IMG/VR virus record: IMGVR_UViG_3300033070_001349
Span: 1-64,000 of that record
Source of the DNA: a virus
Taxonomy: Duplodnaviria; Caudoviricetes
Strand: one strand, 5' to 3'
DNA: 64,000 bases
Numbering within the stretch: position 1 is the first letter of the stretch; each line of letters begins with the position of its first letter. Both the position numbers and the translations under genes were made by a program. A model generated the notes under the pieces. That model had not been told where the DNA came from. It saw nothing but the letters and a program-made list of their open reading frames with translations, and made no database searches. Below, piece by piece: positions 3,013 to 62,795 of the stretch.

Positions 3013-5538
3013 ATGAGCACCTCAGACAAGAGCCCCGCCGCACCGCCCTCTCCCCTCTCGAAGGGGCGCTGGCCCTGGACCGCCCGATCCGTCCTGGTGC
3101 TGCACACCAACGAGACGATCACCCTCCCGCCCGAAACGGAGTACGCCCTCACTGAGCGGCCCTACTCCGAGACGGGGACTTTCCGGCCCGCCGCGCGACT
3201 GTGGCCGCACCACGGGCACGCCGGGAACCTCCCGCCGCACGTCGAAAACGAGGTGTGGGTCCAGCGCCCTGAGGGGCAGTACGTCGTTCGCATCCTCGGA
3301 TAGGAAGAGGTCTCGCCATGCCCACGCCCAAGAAGACCGCCAAGAAGTCCGCCCCCAAGCCCGGCGCCGTCATCCTCCCCCCGGCGCCCCCCTCCCTCCG
3401 CGACCGGATCGAGGCCGGGGAGTTCGCCAACCGCAACCCCTACGCCCAGCGCACGAAGGACCCCGCCACGCACGAGACGTGGCGCGCGGCCGAGACGGCA
3501 AACTACGCCAACTTCCGCGCCGCCCTCGAAGCGGACTACGACGTGGCGAAGTGGCCCCAGGCCCTCCGCGACCGGGTGTGGCGCGAGACCGAGGAGCGCC
3601 GGGACGGCTCGGGCTTCGCCTCCTACATCGACCGCTACGAGGAGATCGTGGCGGGGTACAGTGAGGCCTTCGACGCGGGCTTCAAGGCCGGGGAGGCTCA
3701 CGGCCGCGAGGCCGAGGCGGATCATCGGTCCGGGTTGACCGGCTAGGGGCTATGCGCTAGGTTGCGAACCGCGATGCTTACCCCGCCGCCCGTCGAAGTC
3801 CTCGCCGCCCTCGCCTCGAATACGGCGATGTTCTCCGCGGTGTCCGCCCTGAAGCGGATGCGGGACCGGGTCGAGAACTACCTCGAACACAGCCCCCTTG
3901 CCGACCCGGTCCGCCGCGAGTGGTGGACCCGGTGGCTCTCCTACGACACCCCCCACTGGCGCCGAGCCCTTGCCGACCCGAAGGACTGCGGCTGGGCGTG
4001 GTCGGTGTGCTTCATGGTGGAGGGGTGGATCGCCGGGGCGTGCCTCCGGGACCTCGAAGCCCTGCCCAGCCTGTGGTCGATCGAGACGGTCTCGGATGCG
4101 TGGAGTCAGGGCTTCCTCGTCCGGCTCGGGCCGGAGCCCGAGGGGCGCTATCTGACGCTCGCCGCGGACGGGGGCTGGATGGAGATTCTCGTGGCCGAAG
4201 AGCCCGACCCGGCCCCCGTCGAGGGCGCGTGAACCGCTCCTGGGACGTGACCCTCCGGCTCCCCGCGGCGATGCCCCTCGTCTTCCCGGCGGCCCCCCTC
4301 CCGTCGGGTAACATCGTCCCGTGCATCATCGCCCACCGGCAGAAGTTCGGCACGGGGCACCCCAAGGCCCCCTTCGTGCCGTCGCGCAGCCGCGACGCCT
4401 GGAAGGCCGCCCTCGCCGCGGGGAAGTCGCGGGGCCTGCGGCTCGTGGAGGTCAACGTCGGCGCCCCGCCCCACGCCGTGACGTGGTGGGTCGCTGGGGC
4501 CGTGATCTACGGCGGGGAGACCTACCGGCAGATCATCGCCGAGGTCGTCGGCCGGGGCCGCGCCCCAGACGCCTCGAAGGCCGCCCTCCTCTCCGCCCGC
4601 GGCGAGCTCGTGATCCACGATGCCCGTCAGGACGGCTTCGCTCCGCTCCTACCCGTCCTGTCCCTTGCCGCCGAGCCCGCCGAGCCCGAGGAGATCCCCG
4701 CCCCTGTGAGCGCCCTCTCCCCCCAACCCCCCGCCGTCCCCCACCGGGGGGAACCGCACCGCTGCCCCGAGGGCTGCGACGAGTGCAACGATCACGACTG
4801 CAAGCGCCGACGCCGCGGGGTGATGCCCGCGTGCCCCTGTCAGTGCCACGTCCGGTGCTTCGTCGCCGCCCACCCGTAGCCCATCGAGGACCCGCCGCCA
4901 TGCCCGAAGACCTCGCCTCTCACACCGAGCCGGAAGCCGCGTTTGGCTACCGGACGCGCCTCATGGGGCACTTCCAGCGCCTCGCCGACCTCCACGGCAA
5001 GGAGGCGTCCGCGATCCCCGAGGAGGGGGCCACGCCCCTGGACAAACTCCGGCGCGACGCCCACCTCCACCGCGGGGCGATCTACCTGTCCGTCGTCTCG
5101 ACCCTCTCGACCGACTCCCGGCGGGAGAGCCCGGAGGAGCGCACGGTGCGGCTCCTGGGGGTGGGGGCGAACGCCGTTCTCCACTACGCCGACCACCTCA
5201 AGGCGCATACCGCCAGGGCCTTCGCGGTCGAGCTCGTGGGCCGCATGAAGGACGCCCTGGCGCGGGTCGATCGGGAGTACCTCACCCTCGCCGAGGTGAA
5301 GACGGTCCTCACCGACGCGCGGGCCGAGGCTCACACCCCCTTCGGGTCGACCGTCGAGGCCGTGTACGAGGACGCCCTCTTCCGGTGGCAGAGCCTCGCG
5401 ATCCACCGGGCCCAGGTCGCCGAGGCCTTCGACGAGATCACCACCCTCCTCGACCTCCCCGAGGGCTCGACGCCCCGCGAGGTGGTCTTCGCCCTCCGGG
5501 AGCGGCTCGCACGCTCCGCCCTCGCTTCCAACGCCTGA
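3013..5538 (+). CDS. run of five hypothetical genes
   Basis: 3013-3303, 3318-3746, 3774-4232, 4229-4879 (Cys-rich C-terminus), 4900-5538. Confidence 0.6.
3735..3763 (+). promoter_or_regulatory. class-I promoter
   Basis: TTGACC-N17-TAGGTT with TATGCGC. Confidence 0.75.
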
Positions 5539-5543
5539 CCCGC

Positions 5544-5559
5544 GGAGTCACATGGCTCC
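5544..5559. repeat. 16-bp palindrome, copy 2 (intergenic)
   Basis: GGAGTCA-CA-TGGCTCC. Confidence 0.9.
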
Positions 5560-5578
5560 ATCACCCGAGAGAGACCCC

Positions 5579-8284
5579 ATGCTCATCCTCACCACCGACC
5601 GCATCGAAAACACCGAACACGTCATCCTGACCACCCGGCGCCTCGCCGAGCTCGCCTCCGACCCGGAGCGCACGCGCGTCACCGCGGGGATGCAGGAGCT
5701 CGCCTCGAAGCTCAAGCCCTACATCGCCGCAATCCCGCGCGACGGGTGGACCCCCTTCCACGTCGCCCTCGAACTCATCCGGCTCGACTACGCCTCCATG
5801 ACCCTCACGAATGAGGACGTGAACTTCCTCGTGTCATCCCTGGCGGAGTACCCCTGGTCGGACATCTCGACCGACGAGATGCGCTTCGCCTGGGCCCACC
5901 GCTTCTATGCCATCGCCGAGCTCAAGGGGTACTTCGCCTTCGTTCCGCGCAGCGGCGAGGCCGTCAACGTGGGCGTCTCCCGGGCGCAGATCGAGCTTCA
6001 CTCCCTCGTCTGCGACGCCCGCCGCCGCGACTACGGCGCGGCGCTCGAAGCCACTAACCTCATGCACTTCGCCTCCAGGGACCGCGCCCACGTCGACTAC
6101 CAGACCCTCGTGACCGTGCGGCCCGGCTTCCTCGTCACGACCGACGGCGCCGAGGCCACGGTTGTCTTCTACGACTACGTGATCCCCTTCGGCCGGACCG
6201 GCACGGGCCCCGAGGCCATGGCCTTCAAGGCGGTGAACCCCCGGCGCTACATGGAGGCGGTCGCCCTCCTCCCGGGCAACAACCGCGGCACCGACGAGGA
6301 CCTCAAGGGCTCCTTCCGGCGGGACGACGCCCGGCCCCCGCACGTCGTGAGCAGCGACGCGATGCTCTCCCGCGCGACGCATCGGGCCCCCGGCGCCCCC
6401 CGCGGGGTCGACGGCCCCTTCGTCCCCGAGACCCTCACGCACCCCCTCCTCGACAGCGCGGACACCGCCGAGGAGGTCGACGCGGCCCTCGCCGCCGCCG
6501 AGGGCTGCGACTACTGCGGGCCGGTCCCCGACGCCCGCGACAGCGACAGCGACCTCATCGCGGCGATCCAGGCGGCCGACCCCGCCCTCAACCCGAGGCG
6601 CAAGGCCGCCGACGAGGAGAAGAGGTCGGTGCGCCACCTCGTGGGCATCGGGCGGCTCCCGCACGCCTTCATCGAGGAGCACGCCCAGGGCATGGCCCCG
6701 CGGGCGCCGCGGCTCGGGGTCCGGGGCGTGCTCGCCGGGCCCCCTTCGGGGGATCCTGGTCTCCTCGACCGCGCCGAGCGCCACCCCGCCTCGGCGGTGT
6801 CCGCGAAGCACCCCGCCGAGCGTCGGTCCGTGACCGAGCTCCGCAACAAGCTCTCCGAGGCCCTCGACATCATCGGGAAGATGAGCGCGGCCGAGCGGTC
6901 GGGGCAGGCCAACACCGACCACCGGGAGGGCTACAACCGGCTGCGGTCGTGGGCCCTGACCTTCCTCCACGGAGTGCCCGCGTCCTCCTTCCCCGGGCCG
7001 ATGCCGCTCGACGAGGGGGCCCCGGTCACCTTCGAGGCCCTCGCCGTGTGCATCCGGCAGCTCCTTGGGCTCTTCCCGGTGCAGGCCTCCCCCGACTACG
7101 TCGGCCTCATGGCCGAGTCGCCCGGGGTTCTCGGGGACGCCCTCCGCCATCCGGGGCCCCCGCCCATGGCCCCCGCCGACCCCACCGCGCTGCAACTGCT
7201 TCGCGTGGACATCACCGTCTCGATCCGCGACCTCGCGGGGGTCGGGATCGACGCCCTGTACGCCAAGGCGAGCGCGGAGGCAGTCGGCGCCTACAACGCC
7301 CTCCTCGCTCGGGCGTGGGCGCTCTTCCCCGAGCCCGGCCCCCAGCGCGCCCTCCTCCCCGAGGTCATCGCCGCGGTCCCTGGCCTCGCGCCGCCGAACA
7401 GGGCCGAGGTCCTCGAACGGTCGCGCCGCCTCCTCGCGGTCCTCCCCGGGGACCCGCCCGCGAGCGGTCAGGATCCGCTCGAATCCCCGCGGGCCAAGGG
7501 ATCGGAGGAGCCATACGACCTCGTGAACGACGGCCTCCTCCAGGCGTGCCTCGCGGGCCCCGAGGCCATCCGGGTCTTCGCCCTCGACGACTTCGCGGTC
7601 GCCTTCCTCGACCGCCTCGACGACCTCGGCCGCCTCGTCCGCCGCGGGCGGCTCCCGTGGGCCACCGTCTTCGCGTGCGTCGAGGCCTACAACCACTTCC
7701 GCCGCGCGGTCTTCCAGACGACCGGCGGCGGCATCACCCTCGGGGACCTGGGCCCGGTGGAGCTCCCCGTCGTGGACACGATCGGCAAGGCCGAGGTCCT
7801 GGTCGACCTCAAGGTGCGGATCGCGGAGATCCTCAACCGGCTCCGCCTTTCGCGGACGAAGCGCGCCCAGGATCCGAAGCCCGAGGCCCTCCAGACCCTC
7901 TCGTCGTCCGCGGGTGCAGCCCCCAACCTCATCGACGCCCTCCGCGGGGGCTTCGTGGGCTACCACCTCTTCTCGGCCCGTTCGGCGGCCGAGGGACTCC
8001 TCGGGACGATCGACGCGGTCCTCCACTTCGGTCAGGGCAACGAGCAGCCGTACCCCACGGAGCGGCTCCTCCACACGATCGAGGCCTATAACACCCTCCT
8101 CGCGGCGGCGGTCGCCGCGTGTGGGCCCGGGGTCCCGTATACGCGGTGGCCGGATCGCATGGCGACCGTCCTGCGCTCTGAGATGCCCGCCGAGCTCGCC
8201 CGGGACCACTACCGCGCCCTCGCCGCGGCGCTCCGTACGATCCTCTCCCTCCTCGCCACGCCACGCCGCGCCCCGCGGACGTGA
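5579..8284 (+). CDS. large hypothetical protein (~900 aa) with four C-terminal xAYN/xGYN helical repeats
   Basis: REGYNRL, VGAYNAL, VEAYNHF, IEAYNTL spaced ~120-135 aa apart. Confidence 0.7.
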   Translation: MLILTTDRIENTEHVILTTRRLAELASDPERTRVTAGMQELASKLKPYIAAIPRDGWTPFHVALELIRLDYASMTLTNEDVNFLVSSLAEYPWSDISTDEMRFAWAHRFYAIAELKGYFAFVPRSGEAVNVGVSRAQIELHSLVCDARRRDYGAALEATNLMHFASRDRAHVDYQTLVTVRPGFLVTTDGAEATVVFYDYVIPFGRTGTGPEAMAFKAVNPRRYMEAVALLPGNNRGTDEDLKGSFRRDDARPPHVVSSDAMLSRATHRAPGAPRGVDGPFVPETLTHPLLDSADTAEEVDAALAAAEGCDYCGPVPDARDSDSDLIAAIQAADPALNPRRKAADEEKRSVRHLVGIGRLPHAFIEEHAQGMAPRAPRLGVRGVLAGPPSGDPGLLDRAERHPASAVSAKHPAERRSVTELRNKLSEALDIIGKMSAAERSGQANTDHREGYNRLRSWALTFLHGVPASSFPGPMPLDEGAPVTFEALAVCIRQLLGLFPVQASPDYVGLMAESPGVLGDALRHPGPPPMAPADPTALQLLRVDITVSIRDLAGVGIDALYAKASAEAVGAYNALLARAWALFPEPGPQRALLPEVIAAVPGLAPPNRAEVLERSRRLLAVLPGDPPASGQDPLESPRAKGSEEPYDLVNDGLLQACLAGPEAIRVFALDDFAVAFLDRLDDLGRLVRRGRLPWATVFACVEAYNHFRRAVFQTTGGGITLGDLGPVELPVVDTIGKAEVLVDLKVRIAEILNRLRLSRTKRAQDPKPEALQTLSSSAGAAPNLIDALRGGFVGYHLFSARSAAEGLLGTIDAVLHFGQGNEQPYPTERLLHTIEAYNTLLAAAVAACGPGVPYTRWPDRMATVLRSEMPAELARDHYRALAAALRTILSLLATPRRAPRT

Positions 8285-55406: not shown

Positions 55407-55724
55407 GTGGACTACCGCAAGCCCTTCCGGGTGCTCAGGGCCGCCAGGAACCTGAGCCAGAAGGAGCTCGCGGCGCGGATGGGGGTCACCCCCACCGTCA
55501 TCTCCCTCGCCGAGACCGGCGCCAGGAAGCCCTCCCGCGAGGTGGTCGAGCGAGCCGCTCGGGCCCTCGGGGTCTCCCTCCCCCTCTTCACGACCCTGGC
55601 CATGACCCCTGAGGCGTTCGCCGCCCTGACGCCTGCCGTCGTGGAGGGGGTGACCGCCGAGCTCCTCTCGGTGGTCCTCTCAGGGGAACATGGCCCCGCC
55701 GCGACCCCGCCCCCTCCGAATTGA
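55407..55724 (+). CDS. XRE-family HTH regulator
   Basis: LRAARNLSQKELAARMGVTPTVISLAETGARKPS. Confidence 0.85.
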   Translation: MDYRKPFRVLRAARNLSQKELAARMGVTPTVISLAETGARKPSREVVERAARALGVSLPLFTTLAMTPEAFAALTPAVVEGVTAELLSVVLSGEHGPAATPPPPN

Positions 55725-55754
55725 CTACGCCTAGACACCTGATAGATTGGTGTC

Positions 55755-55949
55755 ATGCGCGACCAGTCTGTCCAGGCCGTCCACGAGCCCGTGGAGGGCT
55801 CCAAGCTCCGCATCCATCGGGGGGTCTACGCCGGGAAGGTCGGTGTGGTTCGGGGGCCCTACGCCGACCCGGTCCGCCCGGCGGGGTACAAGGTCGTCAT
55901 CGAAGGGGTCGCCACGGTCGTCTTCACTTTCGAGACGATGGCCCCTTGA
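55755..55949 (+). CDS. small KOW/SH3-like protein with its own leaderless promoter (55721-55748)
   Basis: LRIHRGVYAGKVGVV; TTGACT-N16-TAGATT-N6-ATG. Confidence 0.5.
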   Translation: MRDQSVQAVHEPVEGSKLRIHRGVYAGKVGVVRGPYADPVRPAGYKVVIEGVATVVFTFETMAP

Positions 55950-55973
55950 CTCCTCCAATCTAGGACATAGAAT
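55946..55973 (+). promoter_or_regulatory. promoter of the ncRNA island
   Basis: TTGACT-N16-TAGAAT. Confidence 0.8.
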
Positions 55974-55982
55974 ACAACTCGT

Positions 55983-56202
55983 GAGCGGCTCGATCGGTGA
56001 GCCCTTCGCGAACACCTCAAACGGACCCCCCGGACCATCCTCCGGGAGCGAAGGGCGAGGTGACGACGATCTAGCCCGCGACGCAGGCGAGGAGCTTGCG
56101 GAAGCAACCCGAGGAGGGGAGCGCGTCGGGCACTACGAGGGCGGACTGGGCCCCCGAAAAGGATCGAGGCAGCGCGCGAAGGATTCACCGATCGAGCCGC
56201 TC
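55983..56202 (+). ncRNA. 220-nt structured RNA closed by a 28-bp stem
   Basis: 55983-56010 pairs with 56175-56202 (one G-U, one mismatch); internal hairpins. Confidence 0.75.
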
Positions 56203-56207
56203 CAACC

Positions 56208-56284
56208 CCTCGCGTGGCGCAAAGCAGACGCGCTCCGTTCAGACCGGAGACATAGTGCGGGTTCGAGACCCGCGGCGAGGACCA
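56208..56284 (+). tRNA. atypical tRNA-Leu(CAG)
   Basis: CTCCG-TTCAGAC-CGGAG, GCGGG-TTCGAGA-CCCGC, 3' ACCA; G7:G66 mismatch, no D-loop GG, 7-nt variable region. Confidence 0.7.
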
Positions 56285-56307
56285 GACCGCTCCCGCAGAC
56301 CACCCCC

Positions 56308-56323
56308 GGAGTCATATGACTCC
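56308..56323. repeat. 16-bp palindrome, copy 13 (fully symmetric, 7 bp upstream of a -35)
   Basis: GGAGTCA-TA-TGACTCC. Confidence 0.92.
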
Positions 56324-56330
56324 AAGCCCG

Positions 56331-56358
56331 TTGACCTGACGGGCCTGCGTGATAGGTT
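56331..56358 (+). promoter_or_regulatory. second ncRNA promoter
   Basis: TTGACC-N16-TAGGTT. Confidence 0.75.
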
Positions 56359-56364
56359 GCAGTT

Positions 56365-56459
56365 GTTCAGACCCGGGGCCCTCCGAGACGGTCTCCTCCC
56401 CCGTGCCCCCTCGCGGCTCCCCGCCCGCCGCGAATCCTCCGAGGGCCCCGGGCCTGGGC
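56365..56459 (+). ncRNA. 95-nt RNA with a long terminal stem and two C-rich loops
   Basis: CCCGGGGCCCTC/GAGGGCCCCGGG; loops TCTCCTCCC and TCCCCGCCC; starts at the predicted +1. Confidence 0.65.
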
Positions 56460-56470
56460 GTTCGTTCGAT

Positions 56471-56547
56471 TCTCCCGTAGCTCAATTGGCTAGAGCACCG
56501 GCTTCCTAAGCCGGTTGTTGCAGGTTCGAGTCCTGCCGGGGGTGCCA
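56471..56547 (+). tRNA. tRNA-Arg(CCT)
   Basis: Cloverleaf GCTC/GAGC, CCGGC-TTCCTAA-GCCGG, GCAGG-TTCGAGT-CCTGC, 3' GCCA; U1:U72 mismatch. Confidence 0.92.
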
Positions 56548-56688
56548 TCCGTCGTCCAAGTTTAGGACGCTCGCTGATCGACCATCGGGGACGCCCGGGG
56601 CGGTCCGACCGGGGTCGCTCCCTGGAGTACCTGCGAGAGATGCTGTCTGTCCGCCCCTCCATAAGGGGGGCGGTGAGCAGCCGGACCA
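56548..56688 (+). ncRNA. tRNA-derived RNA with a 58-nt anticodon-loop insert and an expanded T-arm
   Basis: TCCG/CGGA plus CCA; D-arm GTCC/GGAC; CTCGC/GCGAG; AGAT; GCTG/CAGC. Confidence 0.55.
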
Positions 56689-56720
56689 ATTCACCCTGAC
56701 AGAGAAAAGGACGTGCGAAC

Positions 56721-57035: not shown

Positions 57036-57039
57036 CTAC

Positions 57040-57164
57040 GGCCGGGTCGTCCAACGGCAAGACGACCGGAACCTCCCCCAGGTGAGCGCTTGCCCGGGAG
57101 GAGGGCCCGAGGGTAGATCGCCCTCGGTGGGGAGATGCGGGTTCGAGTCCCGCCCCGGCGACCA
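57040..57164 (+). ncRNA. tRNA-like RNA with the anticodon arm replaced by a multi-hairpin insert
   Basis: GCCGGG/CCCGGC plus ACCA; D-arm GTC-CAACGGCAA-GAC; T-arm GCGGG-TTCGAGT-CCCGC. Confidence 0.7.
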
Positions 57165-57264
57165 GCTTGACGGAGGCCCAGGTTCAACTCCGGGCACTTC
57201 TCCTCGGAGGGGTGTGGTGTAGGAGGTACGTCCCCCCGGGGGCGAGGCCGCGCACCGTCGAGCT
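57164..57264 (+). ncRNA. YrlA/Y-RNA-like circularly permuted tRNA mimic
   Basis: Outer stem AGCTTGACGG/CCGTCGAGCT; T-arm, loop-closed acceptor stem, D-arm in that order. Confidence 0.6.
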
Positions 57265-57292
57265 CCTCTATTCAACTACCGAGGTCCGCACC

Positions 57293-57547
57293 ATGAGCAT
57301 CCTGACCCGCCTCGCGCACCACCTCCACCTCGCGACCCGGGACTACCTCCGCTCCCGCGGGGAGACCCCCGGGATCTGGGGGGAGCGCCGCGAGCTCTAC
57401 GACAGGTGCCATCAGGCCTACGCCCAGGGCCGAACCTCGGAGGCCCGCGCCCTCCTCGACACGCTGAAGCTCGACCCGACGGGGATCGAGGCGGACCTCG
57501 TCCGCCTGGAGCTCCTCGTCCGCCGGAAGGAGTCGCTCGCCACATGA
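57293..57547 (+). CDS. hypothetical protein
   Basis: GAGG SD, ATGA-coupled to the AlkB-like gene. Confidence 0.55.
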   Translation: MSILTRLAHHLHLATRDYLRSRGETPGIWGERRELYDRCHQAYAQGRTSEARALLDTLKLDPTGIEADLVRLELLVRRKESLAT

Positions 57548-58158
57548 CCAAGCCCACCTACACCCCCCGCTACGTCGCCTCCATCCTCCCCGCCGGGGGC
57601 CTGCCCGAGCACAAGCTCTACGACTCCGTCCTCGCGACCCTGCGGGACGAGGCACAGTGGGACGACACGCACGACGCCCCGCGGTCGGAGTGCTTCATGG
57701 CCGAGGACCAGGGGGCGGTCTACTCCTACGGGTCGCAGGCCCGGGGACGGACCTACAAGGCCACGCCCATGCACCCCCTGGTCAAGGCGATCATGGACGG
57801 GATGAACGCCGACCTCAAGACGGCGTACAACGTGTGCGTCCTGAACCGCTACAAGGACGGCCACCAACACCTGGGGTGGCACTGCGACGACAGCCCCGAG
57901 CAGGACAAGGACCACCCCATCGCGGTCGTATCGTTCGGGGCCGAGCGGGCGATCTGGACCCGCGTCAACGGGCACAAGGGCCCGATCCCCGACGAGGACA
58001 AGTACCTCCTCGGCCAGGGGAGCCTCTTCGTGATGCCGGTGGGCTACCAGGACACGCATCAGCACAAGATCCCCAAGCACGACCGGGAGTGCGGAATGCG
58101 CATCTCCCTCACCTTCCGCAAGCTCGACGTGCTCGTGCCGATGCTGGGGGCGGGGTGA
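57544..58158 (+). CDS. AlkB-family 2OG-Fe(II) dioxygenase (ALKBH2/3-like)
   Basis: LNRYKDG..LGWHCDD, IAVVSFGAER, GSLFVM, HKIPK, RISLTFR. Confidence 0.92.
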   Translation: MTKPTYTPRYVASILPAGGLPEHKLYDSVLATLRDEAQWDDTHDAPRSECFMAEDQGAVYSYGSQARGRTYKATPMHPLVKAIMDGMNADLKTAYNVCVLNRYKDGHQHLGWHCDDSPEQDKDHPIAVVSFGAERAIWTRVNGHKGPIPDEDKYLLGQGSLFVMPVGYQDTHQHKIPKHDRECGMRISLTFRKLDVLVPMLGAG

Positions 58159-58589
58159 TCCGTTCGGGCCGCGTCGTCGTCCCCTTCGGCCCGAGGGCCC
58201 CGGCCAGTCTCCGCATCGGCGGGACCGGAGCCAGGGCCCTCGGGTGCGTAGCTCGGGGCGCCACGGGCCGATCCACCCCACCGCGGCCCTTCCTCCGGTG
58301 CGAGCCCGAGCGTCAGGACGACTGGCGCTCCTACCCCACGATCGCCCCTTTCCGACCGACCTACTGGTGGCTCCGGCACCGTGAGGACCTCGTGGTCAAC
58401 GTCCTCGTGGTGCGGGTGGAGTGGACCCGCTGCTCGGACAACCCCCTCGACGGGGTGGTGATCGACGCCGAGTGGAGCGAGCCGCCCTACACCCTGCGAA
58501 CCTTCCTCGACCTCCTCGCGACCTGGACCGACGTTCGGTGGGCCCGGGTCCCCCAGCATCCCCCCATCCCCAACACGAGAGTCCTATGA
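58155..58589 (+). CDS. hypothetical protein
   Basis: Coupled by 4-bp overlaps on both sides. Confidence 0.45.
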   Translation: MIRSGRVVVPFGPRAPASLRIGGTGARALGCVARGATGRSTPPRPFLRCEPERQDDWRSYPTIAPFRPTYWWLRHREDLVVNVLVVRVEWTRCSDNPLDGVVIDAEWSEPPYTLRTFLDLLATWTDVRWARVPQHPPIPNTRVL

Positions 58590-59563
58590 GCACCCCCACC
58601 CTCCCCGTCGGTCTCCGGCTCCGCATCCTCGGTCCCAAGGGCACCCCGGACACCCGCACCGTCTTCTTCCCCGAGAGCCTCACTCCGTGGGGCGGCCGGA
58701 AGCCCCTCCGCATCGGGAACCGGCTCGGCGTCGAGCTCTACGTGGATGACCCAGCGGTGTCGAGTCTCGAAGCGGTGGTCGAGTGGACCGACCACGGGCT
58801 CGTCCTGCGCCGCATCGCCGCCGAGGGCGCCGTCCGACTCAACGGCGAGCCCGTGGTCGAGGCGGCCCCCCTCCGGGTCGTCGGCGACAGGATCCAGGTC
58901 GGGGATACGACCATGACCGTCGAGGTGTACCTGTACGGCTTCGTCGGGTCCGTCCACCAGAACGACGCCCCGCAGGCTCCATCAGCGGCCCCCGAGCCCC
59001 CCAAGCAGACCCGCACCGTCCGAGTCCTCACGCGCATCGTCCTCCACGTCACCGAGCCCGGCGTCCCGCCCTACGACCGCACCTTCGACCGCACCGAGAA
59101 GGGGAGCCGCCCGGGGGTGACGATCGGCCGGGGCGAGCGCAGCAAGCTCAGAGTCGCCGACCCGGCTGTGGCCCGTATGCACGCCGTGATCGAGCTCTCG
59201 ACTCAGGGCGCGAAGCTGATCGACTACGGGAGCTGCTCCCTCGTCAACGGGATCGCCGTCAACACCGCAGAGCTCAAGACCGAGGACGTGATCGCGATGG
59301 GCGCCACCTCCATCCGCGTGACCGAGCTCCGCACGGACCCCTTCGAGGTGCCCGTCGAGACCCAGGCCCCCGAGCCCCGCCCCGAGGCCCCGCCGCCGCC
59401 GATGCCCACGAAGACCCCGCCGACCGCCCCGACCGCCAGGGTGGAGGTCTCCTACCTCCAGGCCTTCCTCTGGACCCTCGACGGGGTCGCCAAGCACCTC
59501 CTCGCCAAGGCCGTCCGGTACGCTCGCTCGGTCGAGGCCTCGCACCCGGAGAGCAAGCCGTGA
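58586..59563 (+). CDS. tandem FHA-domain protein
   Basis: LRIGN...DDPAVSSLEA...LNG...GDRIQVG; TIGRG...DPAVARMHA...VNG...EDVIAMG. Confidence 0.85.
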   Translation: MSTPTLPVGLRLRILGPKGTPDTRTVFFPESLTPWGGRKPLRIGNRLGVELYVDDPAVSSLEAVVEWTDHGLVLRRIAAEGAVRLNGEPVVEAAPLRVVGDRIQVGDTTMTVEVYLYGFVGSVHQNDAPQAPSAAPEPPKQTRTVRVLTRIVLHVTEPGVPPYDRTFDRTEKGSRPGVTIGRGERSKLRVADPAVARMHAVIELSTQGAKLIDYGSCSLVNGIAVNTAELKTEDVIAMGATSIRVTELRTDPFEVPVETQAPEPRPEAPPPPMPTKTPPTAPTARVEVSYLQAFLWTLDGVAKHLLAKAVRYARSVEASHPESKP

Positions 59564-60821: not shown

Positions 60822-62795
60822 ATGCCGTCGTTGAACCCTGAGCAAGCCGCCGCCGCCGCCCACGTCGAGGGCCCCGCGATCGTCAACTCCCTCGCGGGGA
60901 CCGGGAAGACCGAGACGATCACGTCCCGGATCGTCGCCCTCGTGGAGGCTGGGGTAGACCCGGCGCGCATCCTCGCCGTGACCTTCTCCCGGGCGGGCGG
61001 GGAGGCGATGAACACCCGCCTCCGCAAGCGCCTCGGGAAGACGGCGGCGCGGGTCGGCACCTTCCATTCCCTGGCCCTGGAGATCCTCCGCGCCGAGGTC
61101 CCCGAGTACGCCAAGTGGGACATCAAGGACGGCGCCTACCGCATGTGCATCAAGACCGCGGTGGGGTGGGAGGAGATGGGCTGGAAGGAGGCCGACGTGT
61201 CGGTCTGCGAGCAGTACGTCTCCCTCTGCATGTGCGCGCTCGCCATGCCCGGCACCCCGGCCGCCCTGAAGGTCGCCGAGGACCTCTACGCTAGGCGGAA
61301 GAAGTCCGACGCCATCCCGAAGCACCTCATGCGCATGTACGAGCGCGCCGAGGAGATCCGCAAGGACCGGCAATTCCTCACCTTCGACGTGGTCCTGGCC
61401 GAGGCGACGCTCCTCCTCCTCGAAGACGAGGGCGTCCGGCGCCGGGTTGCCTCCCGCTGGGACTACGTCATCGCGGACGAGCAACAGGACTCGAACAAGG
61501 CCCAGAACCTGATCGGGCGCCTCCTCGCCGAGCTCCACCGCAACCTCATGGTGGTGGGGGACGAGTTCCAGCGCATCTACGGGTGGCGCGGGGCCGAGGT
61601 GGAGTCCCTCGTGGGGCTCAAGACCGAGTGGGGGGCCAAGACCTACACCCTCTTCCGCAACTACCGATGCGGCGACTCGATCCTCGCGGCGGCCAACATG
61701 ATGCTCAAGAGCATGGGGGCGACCTCCTTCCTCAAGGGGGAGCGCGGGGTCAACGGGGTGGTGACCGGAACCCTCTTCTTCGACTTCGACGCGGAGGCGC
61801 GGAGCATCGCGGGGCGCATCGCCGACTCGCGCGGGGTGCGCAAGCTCTCGGACTACGCAGTGCTCTACCGGACGGCCGCGCAGAGCCGCGCCCTGGAGGA
61901 GGCCTTCCTTGCGGCCAGGATCCCCTACCGGATCACGAGCGGGACCAACTTCTACGAGCGCACGGAGGTGGCCGACCTCCTCTCGTACCTCCGGGTCATC
62001 GCGCCCCTCGGGGACCCCATGGCGTCCCTCCGGTGCCTCAACCGCCCCTTCCGCTTCCTGGGCAAGGCCTTCCTGTCCCGGGTCGAGGCCGCCCTCGGCG
62101 CGGCCGGGTCCGGTGACCCCGTGGCGACCGTCCGGGCCGTCTCCCAACAGCCCGGGGTCCAGTCCCGGCAGGCCGAGAGCGCCGAGTCCTGGTGCGTCCT
62201 CGTGGCCGCGTGCCGCGCCCGCATGGAGAAGGCCGCGTCGTCCCCCTCCGAGGTCGTGCGGCTCGAAGGGTCCCCGGCCTCGATCCTCGAACACATCCTG
62301 ACGCGGACCGACTACGTGAAGTGGCTCACCCGCGAAGAGGGCGACGAGTCGGTCGAGAACTCGCGGGTGTCCAACGTCCGCGAGCTCGTGCGCGTGGCGA
62401 CGAAGTTCGAGACCGTCTCCGACTTCCTGGCCTTCATCGACGAGACCATCGCGGCGGCCAAAGAGGCGGCCCGCACCAACGCCGAGGTCGACGCCGTCAC
62501 CCTCTCGACGGTCCACCGGGCCAAGGGCCTCGAATGGCCGGTGGTGTTCGTCATCGGCGTCAACGCGGGCATCCTCCCCCACGCCCGCGCCGAGGACCCC
62601 TCGGAGGAGGGGCGGCTCTACTACGTCGCCCTGACCCGGGCGCGGGACGAGCTCCACGTCTCCGCCGTCCGGTCCGCCGTGGTCAGTGGCAAGGTTCGGC
62701 CCCTCACCCCCTCGCACTTCCTCGGGCTCTCCGGCATCGTCCTGGTCGACGCGGACGCCGCCGCGATCGAGGCCCAGGGCGTCGGAGCCACATGA
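60822..62795 (+). CDS. UvrD/PcrA/Rep SF1A DNA helicase
   Basis: LNPEQ, AGTGKT, DEQQD, VGDEFQRIYGWRGA, NYRC, STVHRAKGLEW, EEGRLYYVALTRAR. Confidence 0.95.
   Translation: MPSLNPEQAAAAAHVEGPAIVNSLAGTGKTETITSRIVALVEAGVDPARILAVTFSRAGGEAMNTRLRKRLGKTAARVGTFHSLALEILRAEVPEYAKWDIKDGAYRMCIKTAVGWEEMGWKEADVSVCEQYVSLCMCALAMPGTPAALKVAEDLYARRKKSDAIPKHLMRMYERAEEIRKDRQFLTFDVVLAEATLLLLEDEGVRRRVASRWDYVIADEQQDSNKAQNLIGRLLAELHRNLMVVGDEFQRIYGWRGAEVESLVGLKTEWGAKTYTLFRNYRCGDSILAAANMMLKSMGATSFLKGERGVNGVVTGTLFFDFDAEARSIAGRIADSRGVRKLSDYAVLYRTAAQSRALEEAFLAARIPYRITSGTNFYERTEVADLLSYLRVIAPLGDPMASLRCLNRPFRFLGKAFLSRVEAALGAAGSGDPVATVRAVSQQPGVQSRQAESAESWCVLVAACRARMEKAASSPSEVVRLEGSPASILEHILTRTDYVKWLTREEGDESVENSRVSNVRELVRVATKFETVSDFLAFIDETIAAAKEAARTNAEVDAVTLSTVHRAKGLEWPVVFVIGVNAGILPHARAEDPSEEGRLYYVALTRARDELHVSAVRSAVVSGKVRPLTPSHFLGLSGIVLVDADAAAIEAQGVGAT

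Follow-up and report, generated by a model that had tools for sequence, protein, structure and literature searches.

The window, by which we mean the whole stretch of DNA analyzed here, covers the opening 64 kb of an IMG/VR virus record of 148,482 bp (71% GC; estimated completeness, 78%). The source record belongs to a large, GC-rich, uncultured myovirus, as identified by PHROG matches to a tail sheath, a tape measure, a DnaB-like helicase, a primase, and a UvsX-like recombinase. The called genes of the window lie on the plus strand. A promoter motif, TTGAC-N17-TAGNNT, was found at 16 sites in the window, all on the plus strand, compared to a chance expectation of 0.01. These sites, which include 603, 2979, and 11986 and extend to 63496, take the form TTGAC-N17-TAGATT, often with ATGCGC 5' of the motif. 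The same promoter motif is common to the related uncultured phages L105, L106, L108, L109, L113, and L134. The genes neighboring the element described below encode HU, an HTH regulator, AlkB, and an FHA protein, which are genes of the early or takeover type. Related loci carry Tad2-like and ADP-ribosylglycohydrolase genes, and the Tad2-like gene adjoins a candidate copy of the element in L109. Directly past the RNA island that holds the element, we noted an AlkB-type 2OG-Fe(II) oxygenase at 57544-58158 (PHROG "alkylated DNA repair," E 2e-52), with an FHA-domain protein next to it at 58421-59563; the same AlkB and FHA pair lies 3' of the island in L108. The main features of the locus are the following.

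55721-55748, plus strand: promoter of orf64, the upstream neighbor of the element promoter
55946-55973, plus strand: element promoter, made up of TTGACT, a 16-nt spacer, and TAGAAT (10 of 12 positions agree with the sigma-70 consensus)
55983-56010, plus strand: 5' strand of P1, the 28-bp closing helix
56175-56202, plus strand: 3' strand of P1
56208-56284, plus strand: tRNA-Leu(CAG)-like element called by ARAGORN, with an encoded CCA, 5 nt past P1
56308-56323, no strand assigned: 16-bp perfect palindrome GGAGTCATATGACTCC, located past the tRNA-like element and before the promoter that follows at 56331
60822-62795, plus strand: UvrD-type helicase gene, 4.6 kb downstream of the element, which served as the synteny anchor

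The element promoter ends 9 nt before P1, a spacing that is shared by L108. The upstream gene, orf64 (55755-55949), has no homolog in a set of 5.8 billion protein clusters. This gene is leaderless; the ATG comes 7 nt after the -10 box of its own promoter. By analogy with this spacing, the RNA of the element would start at approximately 55980-55981; overall, we predict a start at approximately 55980-55983, i.e., up to 2-3 nt before P1. Every flanking gene shows GC3 periodicity, and this periodicity is absent across 55950-56700, the region of the element. The palindrome GGAGTCATATGACTCC starts 24 nt past the tRNA-Leu mimic. Allowing three or fewer mismatches, the palindrome GGAGYCAYRTGRCTCC has 10 copies of 16 bp each in the window (at 2607, 5544, 9856, 14725, 19147, 24875, 30062, 42404, 56308, and 62784) versus 0.16 expected, and these are mostly located at gene boundaries or approximately 20 nt 5' of promoters. 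The copy at 56308-56323 may mark where the unit ends on its 3' side, or it may be an operator. The palindrome could be the operator of the Cro/CI-type HTH protein encoded at 55407-55724, or it could act as a terminator or processing hairpin.

The first-pass annotation, which was made from the DNA letters of the window, had drawn attention to a 28-bp helix closing a 220-nt stretch. This helix is real; the two 28-nt arms of P1 are 93% complementary, with one G-U and one C-A pair, and they form the top-ranked inverted repeat of the entire 64-kb window. The 220-nt stretch folds at -120 kcal/mol with a z score of -5.8, and the reverse strand is nearly equal (z = -5.0) because a single long helix dominates. 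The 164-nt interior of the window copy was no better than its dinucleotide shuffles (z of -0.7 to -0.9 on the plus strand and +0.2 on the minus strand). The fold significance of the window copy is therefore due to P1 alone, and it is only in the homologs that a structured interior becomes evident. Taken alone, the window copy consists of one outstanding helix plus a purine-rich, U-poor interior. When the fold was constrained, the P1/P2/P3 arrangement of the family had the minimum free energy (MFE) in the window copy (-120.0 kcal/mol) and an ensemble probability of approximately 25%. The interior features in this arrangement are as follows.

56013-56062 (element positions 31-80), plus strand: P2 hairpin domain, with base CACCUC/GAGGUG and tip CCCGGA/UCCGGG at 56029-56046
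56067-56166 (element positions 85-184), plus strand: P3 three-way domain, with outer stem CGAUCU/GGAUCG, an inner stem bearing P3a plus a variable hairpin, and the separate hairpin P3b
56082-56100 (element positions 100-118), plus strand: P3a hairpin of 7 bp, loop GAGGA
56136-56156, plus strand: P3b hairpin, loop GGACUG
56167-56174, plus strand: J3/1, a purine-rich junction that reads AGGCAGCG in the window

Among the small helices proposed earlier, CACCTC/GAGGTG and CCCGGA/TCCGGG are backed by the homologs as the base and tip of P2, respectively, and the hairpin AGGC-GAGGA-GCTT is backed as part of the 7-bp P3a. The pairing CGACGC/GCGTCG and the hairpin TTGC-GGAA-GCAA both fall outside the family consensus and compete with the conserved P3a.

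Collecting homologs, as had been recommended in the first-pass annotation, yielded three firm ones with the same fold and position. They were reached via synteny with the UvrD-type helicase, for which relatives at 50-57% identity were found on Logan contigs and the surroundings were fetched. Each of the three has a promoter, a 28-bp P1, an interior of 163-166 nt, and a tRNA-Leu-like element.

L108, 459-677: promoter 422-449 with a 9-nt gap; arms 459-486 and 650-677; interior of 163 nt; tRNA-Leu(CAG)-like partner 691-767
L105, 5487-5708: promoter 5444-5471; arms 5487-5514 and 5681-5708; interior of 166 nt; tRNA-Leu(CAA)-like partner 5727-5802
L134, 780-999: promoter present; interior of approximately 164 nt; tRNA-like partner 1020-1091

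As judged from these sequences, the fold, length, and position of the element are conserved in at least three other phages despite almost wholly different P1 sequences. The element measures 219-222 nt across the four members, its closing helix comprises 26-28 bp, and the P1 sequences are unrelated between members yet complementary within each, with the exception of the ends GAGCGGC...GCCGCUC, which are common to the window and L108. The L134 and L105 copies are 86% identical. L108, with 71% GC, also resembles the window beyond its tRNA-Leu(CAG)-like element, where a window-like tRNA mimic and the AlkB and FHA genes follow. A further locus, L109 5228-5437, has a promoter, a helix of approximately 27 bp, a 157-nt interior, and, 55 nt farther on, a tRNA-Gln. 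Its score with the L108 model is only 22.9 bits (17.2 on the reverse strand), and it may be a diverged member or an independent analog; we therefore treat it as a candidate only. We also observed an 84-nt hairpin at L109 3800-3883, between the HU and Tad2-like genes, that is P1-like in sequence and length (39 bits) and has no interior domain.

When the locus was compared directly with 50,697 phage records by blastn, nothing matched; the family was not found in the IMG/VR contigs that were scanned, and 22- to 23-mers from the tRNA-like arm and the YrlA-like RNA of the island matched nothing in IMG/VR or JGI metagenome contigs. An exact 18-mer of P1 occurs in two viral contigs (L006 and L007), and these were rejected as chance matches without extended similarity. 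The contigs L005 and L008-L015, which were reached via synteny with orf104, all lack the RNA, and synteny with orf64 and AlkB identified no relatives. The RNA is absent from helicase relatives at 48% identity or lower (L018 and L116-L133), as well as from some relatives at 50-55% identity (L106, L110, L111, and L113). The closest cultured phage is 33% identical, and a search of GTDB genomes with the helicase returned only relatives at approximately 30% identity and no clue to the host.

A covariance model (R1) was built from L108 alone with its MFE structure and was searched against 577 kb of related phage DNA. The other members scored 53.8 bits (L134), 49.0 bits (L105), and 37.3 bits (window), with E values from 1e-10 to 5e-7, whereas unrelated background reached no more than 22 bits in the 577 kb. 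Besides the members, the matches above background were the L109 hairpin at 3800-3883 and the reverse strand of L108 itself (29 bits). Independent folds of L108, L105, and L134 gave the same architecture at nearly the same coordinates: P1, P2 at approximately 30-77, the outer stem of P3 at approximately 82-88/181-187, and a 5-nt junction, GGAAG, leading back to P1, with an inner stem carrying two hairpins and a separate P3b inside P3. The whole-element z scores were -9.0 for L108 and -6.9 for L105. In a four-member alignment guided by, and hence fitted to, the model, in which two of the members are mutually close, 92% of cells pair, compared to 66% in column shuffles and 31-45% with slid partners. 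The same alignment shows double changes in 52 of 83 pairs (P1, 18/26; P2, 12/18; P3 stems, 10/13; P3a, 5/7; P3b, 7/8), and helix 7, which corresponds to one hairpin, is variable among members. Since this alignment was fitted to the model, we added a fitting-free test in which L105 and L134 were aligned by sequence only. Changes affected 25% of the unpaired columns (16/64) and approximately 10% of the paired bases, and 9 of the 12 changed pairs were still paired. The interior came out structurally inconsistent in alignments made with plain MAFFT and RNAalifold, and our conclusions make no use of these; a pair count on an alignment that included 57 spurious hits (E up to 10) was discarded as invalid.

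The strand on which this structure resides bears on whether the element acts as RNA or DNA. The interior z scores for the plus versus the minus strand were -6.3 versus -1.1 for L108 and -4.1 versus -1.4 for L105; the interior structure of both is thus confined to the plus strand, which fixes the strand and argues for RNA over DNA. Near-perfect 28-bp inverted repeats around 164 bp would also be expected of an invertible segment, a MITE, or a cruciform bounded by terminal inverted repeats, and we considered such a DNA-level element. We regard it as highly improbable given that the element is present in a single copy in the 148-kb record, no serine or tyrosine recombinase was found in the record, no target-site duplication could be read from the sequence, the interior helices show covariation and have their stability on a single strand, and the boundaries coincide with the transcription start and the 5' end of the tRNA-like element. 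A retron msr-msd was likewise rejected because the record contains no reverse transcriptase.

Several single-stranded positions are also shared. At J3/1, the window has GGCAG where the other three members have GGAAG. The window and L108 share the P3a loop GAGGA, whereas this loop is GUGA in L105 and AUGA in L134, and the P3b loop occurs as GGACCG, GGACUG, GGGAACG, and GUGACUG (the last in L134). Both L108 and L134 carry GGGGACAC between P2 and P3, and P3 contains A-rich linkers. These conserved single-stranded features suggest tertiary packing. The earlier annotation had counted about ten GGA triplets and proposed a CsrA/RsmA sponge that displays GGA in hairpin loops. Ten triplets are indeed present, and the window copy does have GAGGA loops, but the count after dinucleotide shuffling of this sequence is 9.1 +/- 2.0, so GGA is not enriched over what composition predicts. 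Moreover, GGA is not kept throughout the four members at any of the three single-stranded sites that bear it, owing to the P3a loops of L105 and L134, the P3b loop of L134, and J3/1 of the window. With these results the sponge is close to refuted.

The loops and the genomic setting could also be read as those of a self-assembling ornate RNA, i.e., a small counterpart of ROOL and GOLLD that forms an RNA-only multimer near phage tRNA genes. The element occupies the same genomic niche as these RNAs (PMC12286853), its fold is compact and G-rich with A-rich junctions, and a GNRA-type or GNRNA P3a loop is present in three of the four members (GAGGA, GAGGA, and GUGA). However, it is 220 nt long, compared to 580-800 nt or more for ROOL and GOLLD, no copy matched either family, no self-complementary loop was identified, and the P3a loop of L134 departs from the pattern, so we judge this reading to be improbable.

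No Rfam 15 family matched the element in any of the four copies, at gathering or permissive thresholds. An Rfam search was among the checks proposed earlier, and of the four identities put forward there (a Y-like RNA, a CsrA/RsmA sponge, a 6S-like RNA, or a new class), the new class is the only one that our results back, as a conserved structured noncoding RNA with no Rfam 15 match. A catalog of approximately 10,000 candidate viral structured RNAs covers only motifs of 29-151 nt (PMC10690425). Other resemblances were discarded along the way: a likeness of GGAAGUC to RNase P CR-I is not conserved in the window copy, a T-box-like specifier pairing with the anticodon of the partner lacks a conserved complementary triplet, and a 5S-like three-way junction has no Rfam match.

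The position of the RNA at the +1 of an early promoter, together with the finding that no intrinsic terminator is predicted across the RNA island, led us to weigh an RNA polymerase modifier acting at the promoter, either a put-like processive antiterminator or a 6S-like decoy as suggested previously. The branched P1/P2/P3 shape, which is not a rod with a central bubble, speaks against the 6S option, as does the lack of a match to 6S (RF00013). The put RNAs are two-hairpin elements of approximately 70 nt, and in either case the RNA would be cut off the transcript at the tRNA-like element. We therefore hold out little prospect for a polymerase modifier.

Adjacent to the RNA in all four firm members, 5-20 nt on its 3' side, is a class-I-sized tRNA-Leu look-alike with the anticodon CAG or CAA, which in each case deviates from canonical bacterial tRNA-Leu. 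Bacterial tRNA-Leu normally has a long variable arm. In the window, the tRNA-Leu-like element is class-I sized and, as read from the sequence, has a D loop without GG, one G-G mismatch in the acceptor stem, and a good T arm; it goes unreported by the Rfam tRNA model at a threshold as permissive as E <= 10. Its identity to L108 667-767 is 78%, and the anticodon arm (29 nt) does not vary between the two. In L108, the T loop and CCA of the partner are decayed relative to the window, and in L134, the anticodon loop of the partner is unreadable to ARAGORN. All three tRNA or tRNA-like calls that ARAGORN made in the 148-kb record sit no more than 1.2 kb from the element. The layout of promoter, closed RNA, and tRNA recurs in a second unit of the window; a promoter at 56331-56358 is followed by a C-rich RNA of approximately 95 nt (56365-56459), closed by a 20-bp helix (hairpin 56368-56456), and, 11 nt later, by a genuine tRNA-Arg(CCT) that scores 62.9 bits.

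These arrangements could also mean that the element serves in cis, as a leader or processing stalk. In that case, P1 would be an RNase III stalk, the interior would be an excised by-product, and the RNA would serve the maturation, folding, or stabilization of the downstream tRNA-Leu mimic. The length of P1 is kept at 28 bp while its sequence is free, the coupling between the RNA and the tRNA-like element is strict (4/4 members), the second window unit has the same layout, and the P1-only hairpin of L109 (84 nt; 39 bits) indicates that a P1-type helix can stand alone. However, a by-product would not retain a covarying, constant-size P2 and P3 with conserved junction motifs over 50% divergence. 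Furthermore, the RNA fold is common to the two subgroups, whose tRNA-like partners are strongly divergent. On balance, we consider a purely cis-acting role unlikely, though less so than the other alternatives.

The island holds another RNA of interest, namely a tRNA scaffold with a YrlA-like RNA, at 57036-57298. This region is 80% identical to L108 936-1199 and includes a 40-nt invariant stretch. Against the tRNA model it scores 22.8 bits, with the anticodon arm replaced by an insert of 64 nt, and neither the scaffold nor the YrlA-like RNA reaches the Rfam YrlA model even at E <= 10. The earlier annotation had pointed out that the core of the closing helix resembles the outer stem of this YrlA-like RNA. 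This resemblance is weak; it amounts to a 6- to 8-nt match in GC-rich sequence and is missing from the L105 and L134 copies. We nevertheless considered whether the element could be a Y-RNA-like partner of a host Ro60/Rsr protein, with P1 as the Ro-binding stem working together with the neighboring tRNA mimics. The tRNA mimics of the island and the pairing of the ends in a long helix, as in Y RNAs, would fit, and the relative L113 has a full-length but subthreshold YrlA match at 5467-5582 (29 bits versus a gathering score of 69). However, no TROVE gene (PF05731) was detected in the 148-kb record, which is 78% complete, even though positive controls were detected. No match to YrlA (RF02553) or Y RNA (RF01053) was found over 55983-56202 at E <= 10, the nearest hits being ones that overlap tRNA-Arg, and the Rfam YrlA model recognizes neither the YrlA-like RNA nor the 220-nt element. 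The sequence of P1 is free, its mismatch positions vary between members, and it has no conserved bulge of the Ro type, while the tRNA-like module lies 3' of P1, outside the stem. Together, these results make a Y-like RNA very unlikely.

Weighing this evidence, we think that the element is probably a gene for a stable, compactly folded noncoding RNA of approximately 220 nt, representing a previously uncatalogued family of large, GC-rich, uncultured myoviruses. It is noncoding and phage encoded, and it lies in a tRNA region with a conserved promoter and an abutting tRNA-like element, as is characteristic of the stable RNAs of phage tRNA regions. The best reading is that it constitutes a new family among the stable phage RNAs that are cotranscribed with tRNAs, a kind of RNA that is long known but still lacks an explanation. 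We regard the gene, the way it folds, and its linkage to the tRNA-Leu mimic as evident from the four loci; from their architecture, we infer the following route to the RNA, including its ends and its stability. The promoter would drive a single early transcript through both the RNA and the tRNA mimic. Release would probably occur by tRNA-type processing, with the tRNA-like element as the presumed RNase P signal; a cut at its 5' end would free the RNA and leave a 3' tail of 5 nt. RNase III cutting within P1 may also contribute, given that a constant length of 2.5 turns with free sequence fits an RNase III site. The palindrome past the mimic may close the unit. Because both ends are buried in P1, the freed RNA would resist end-dependent decay.

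Once freed, the RNA could act in trans during early infection. We propose an early trans-acting role, most likely through protein binding, only tentatively. Should the RNA have such a role, it would most likely be that of a protein-binding decoy or scaffold, a reading that derives from the host-takeover and anti-defense genes in the neighborhood. It is also conceivable, if rather improbable, that the RNA and the tRNA-Leu mimic form a single anti-defense device that captures a host RNA-directed immune or housekeeping factor. Under this speculative scheme, the early RNA would be abundant and protected at its ends, and it would act alone or tethered to the tRNA mimic. Its targets might conceivably include a tRNA-anticodon nuclease, an RNA-sensing nucleotidyltransferase, or RNase III. 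If true, this would be a protein-free counter-defense of an undescribed kind.

That phage tRNA regions encode additional stable RNAs, the function of which is unexplained, has been known for fifty years. Our study adds to T4 RNAC and RNAD, ROOL, and GOLLD a compact 220-nt family that is small enough for probing and structure work. The family combines a clearly conserved fold with a defined promoter and an obligatory tRNA-Leu-mimic partner, in a phage lineage that has no cultured relative. Given that the unit is small and self-contained (promoter, RNA, and tRNA mimic), it should be expressible in a surrogate host, which would permit tests of processing, stability, binding partners, and the effect on defense systems.

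In comparison with known systems, the kind of RNA described here is best exemplified by phages T4 and T5. T4 RNAC and RNAD, the stable RNAs known as species 1 and 2, are small, noncoding, and derived from the phage tRNA region, and the stable RNAs of T5 adjoin tRNA genes, by report. The biological roles of T4 RNAC and RNAD are unknown (PMC3014915). Like them, the RNA of the window is a small noncoding RNA in a phage tRNA region, and maturation with tRNAs is presumed for both. It differs from them in its greater length, its closing helix of 28 bp, and the promoter of its own; moreover, the neighbor to which it is coupled is a tRNA mimic, and it does not sit inside an array of working tRNAs. Kinship in sequence or structure is not to be expected; the likeness is one of kind and not of homology. 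ROOL (RF03087) and GOLLD (RF01998) are structured RNAs of phages and prophages, of unknown function, that often lie near tRNA islands (PMC12286853). They are three to four times larger than the 219- to 222-nt element, pseudoknotted, and nanocage-forming, and their models do not match it. In the YrlA-type Y RNAs (RF02553; PMC4201824), the two ends likewise form a long stem, and tRNA mimicry is again a feature of the locus. In contrast to these RNAs, the window has no Ro60 gene, no model match, and no conserved Ro-binding helix, and its tRNA-like module lies outside the stem. Finally, the RNase III stalks of rRNA operons and the R sites of T7 likewise consist of a long-range helix of approximately 2.5 turns that encloses a structured RNA, and the leaders and spacers released by RNase P likewise have a tRNA-shaped element directly 3'. 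In those systems, cleavage yields a known product, either the enclosed RNA or the tRNA, whereas in the phages described here cleavage is only presumed, and the enclosed RNA is itself a conserved, uncatalogued fold.
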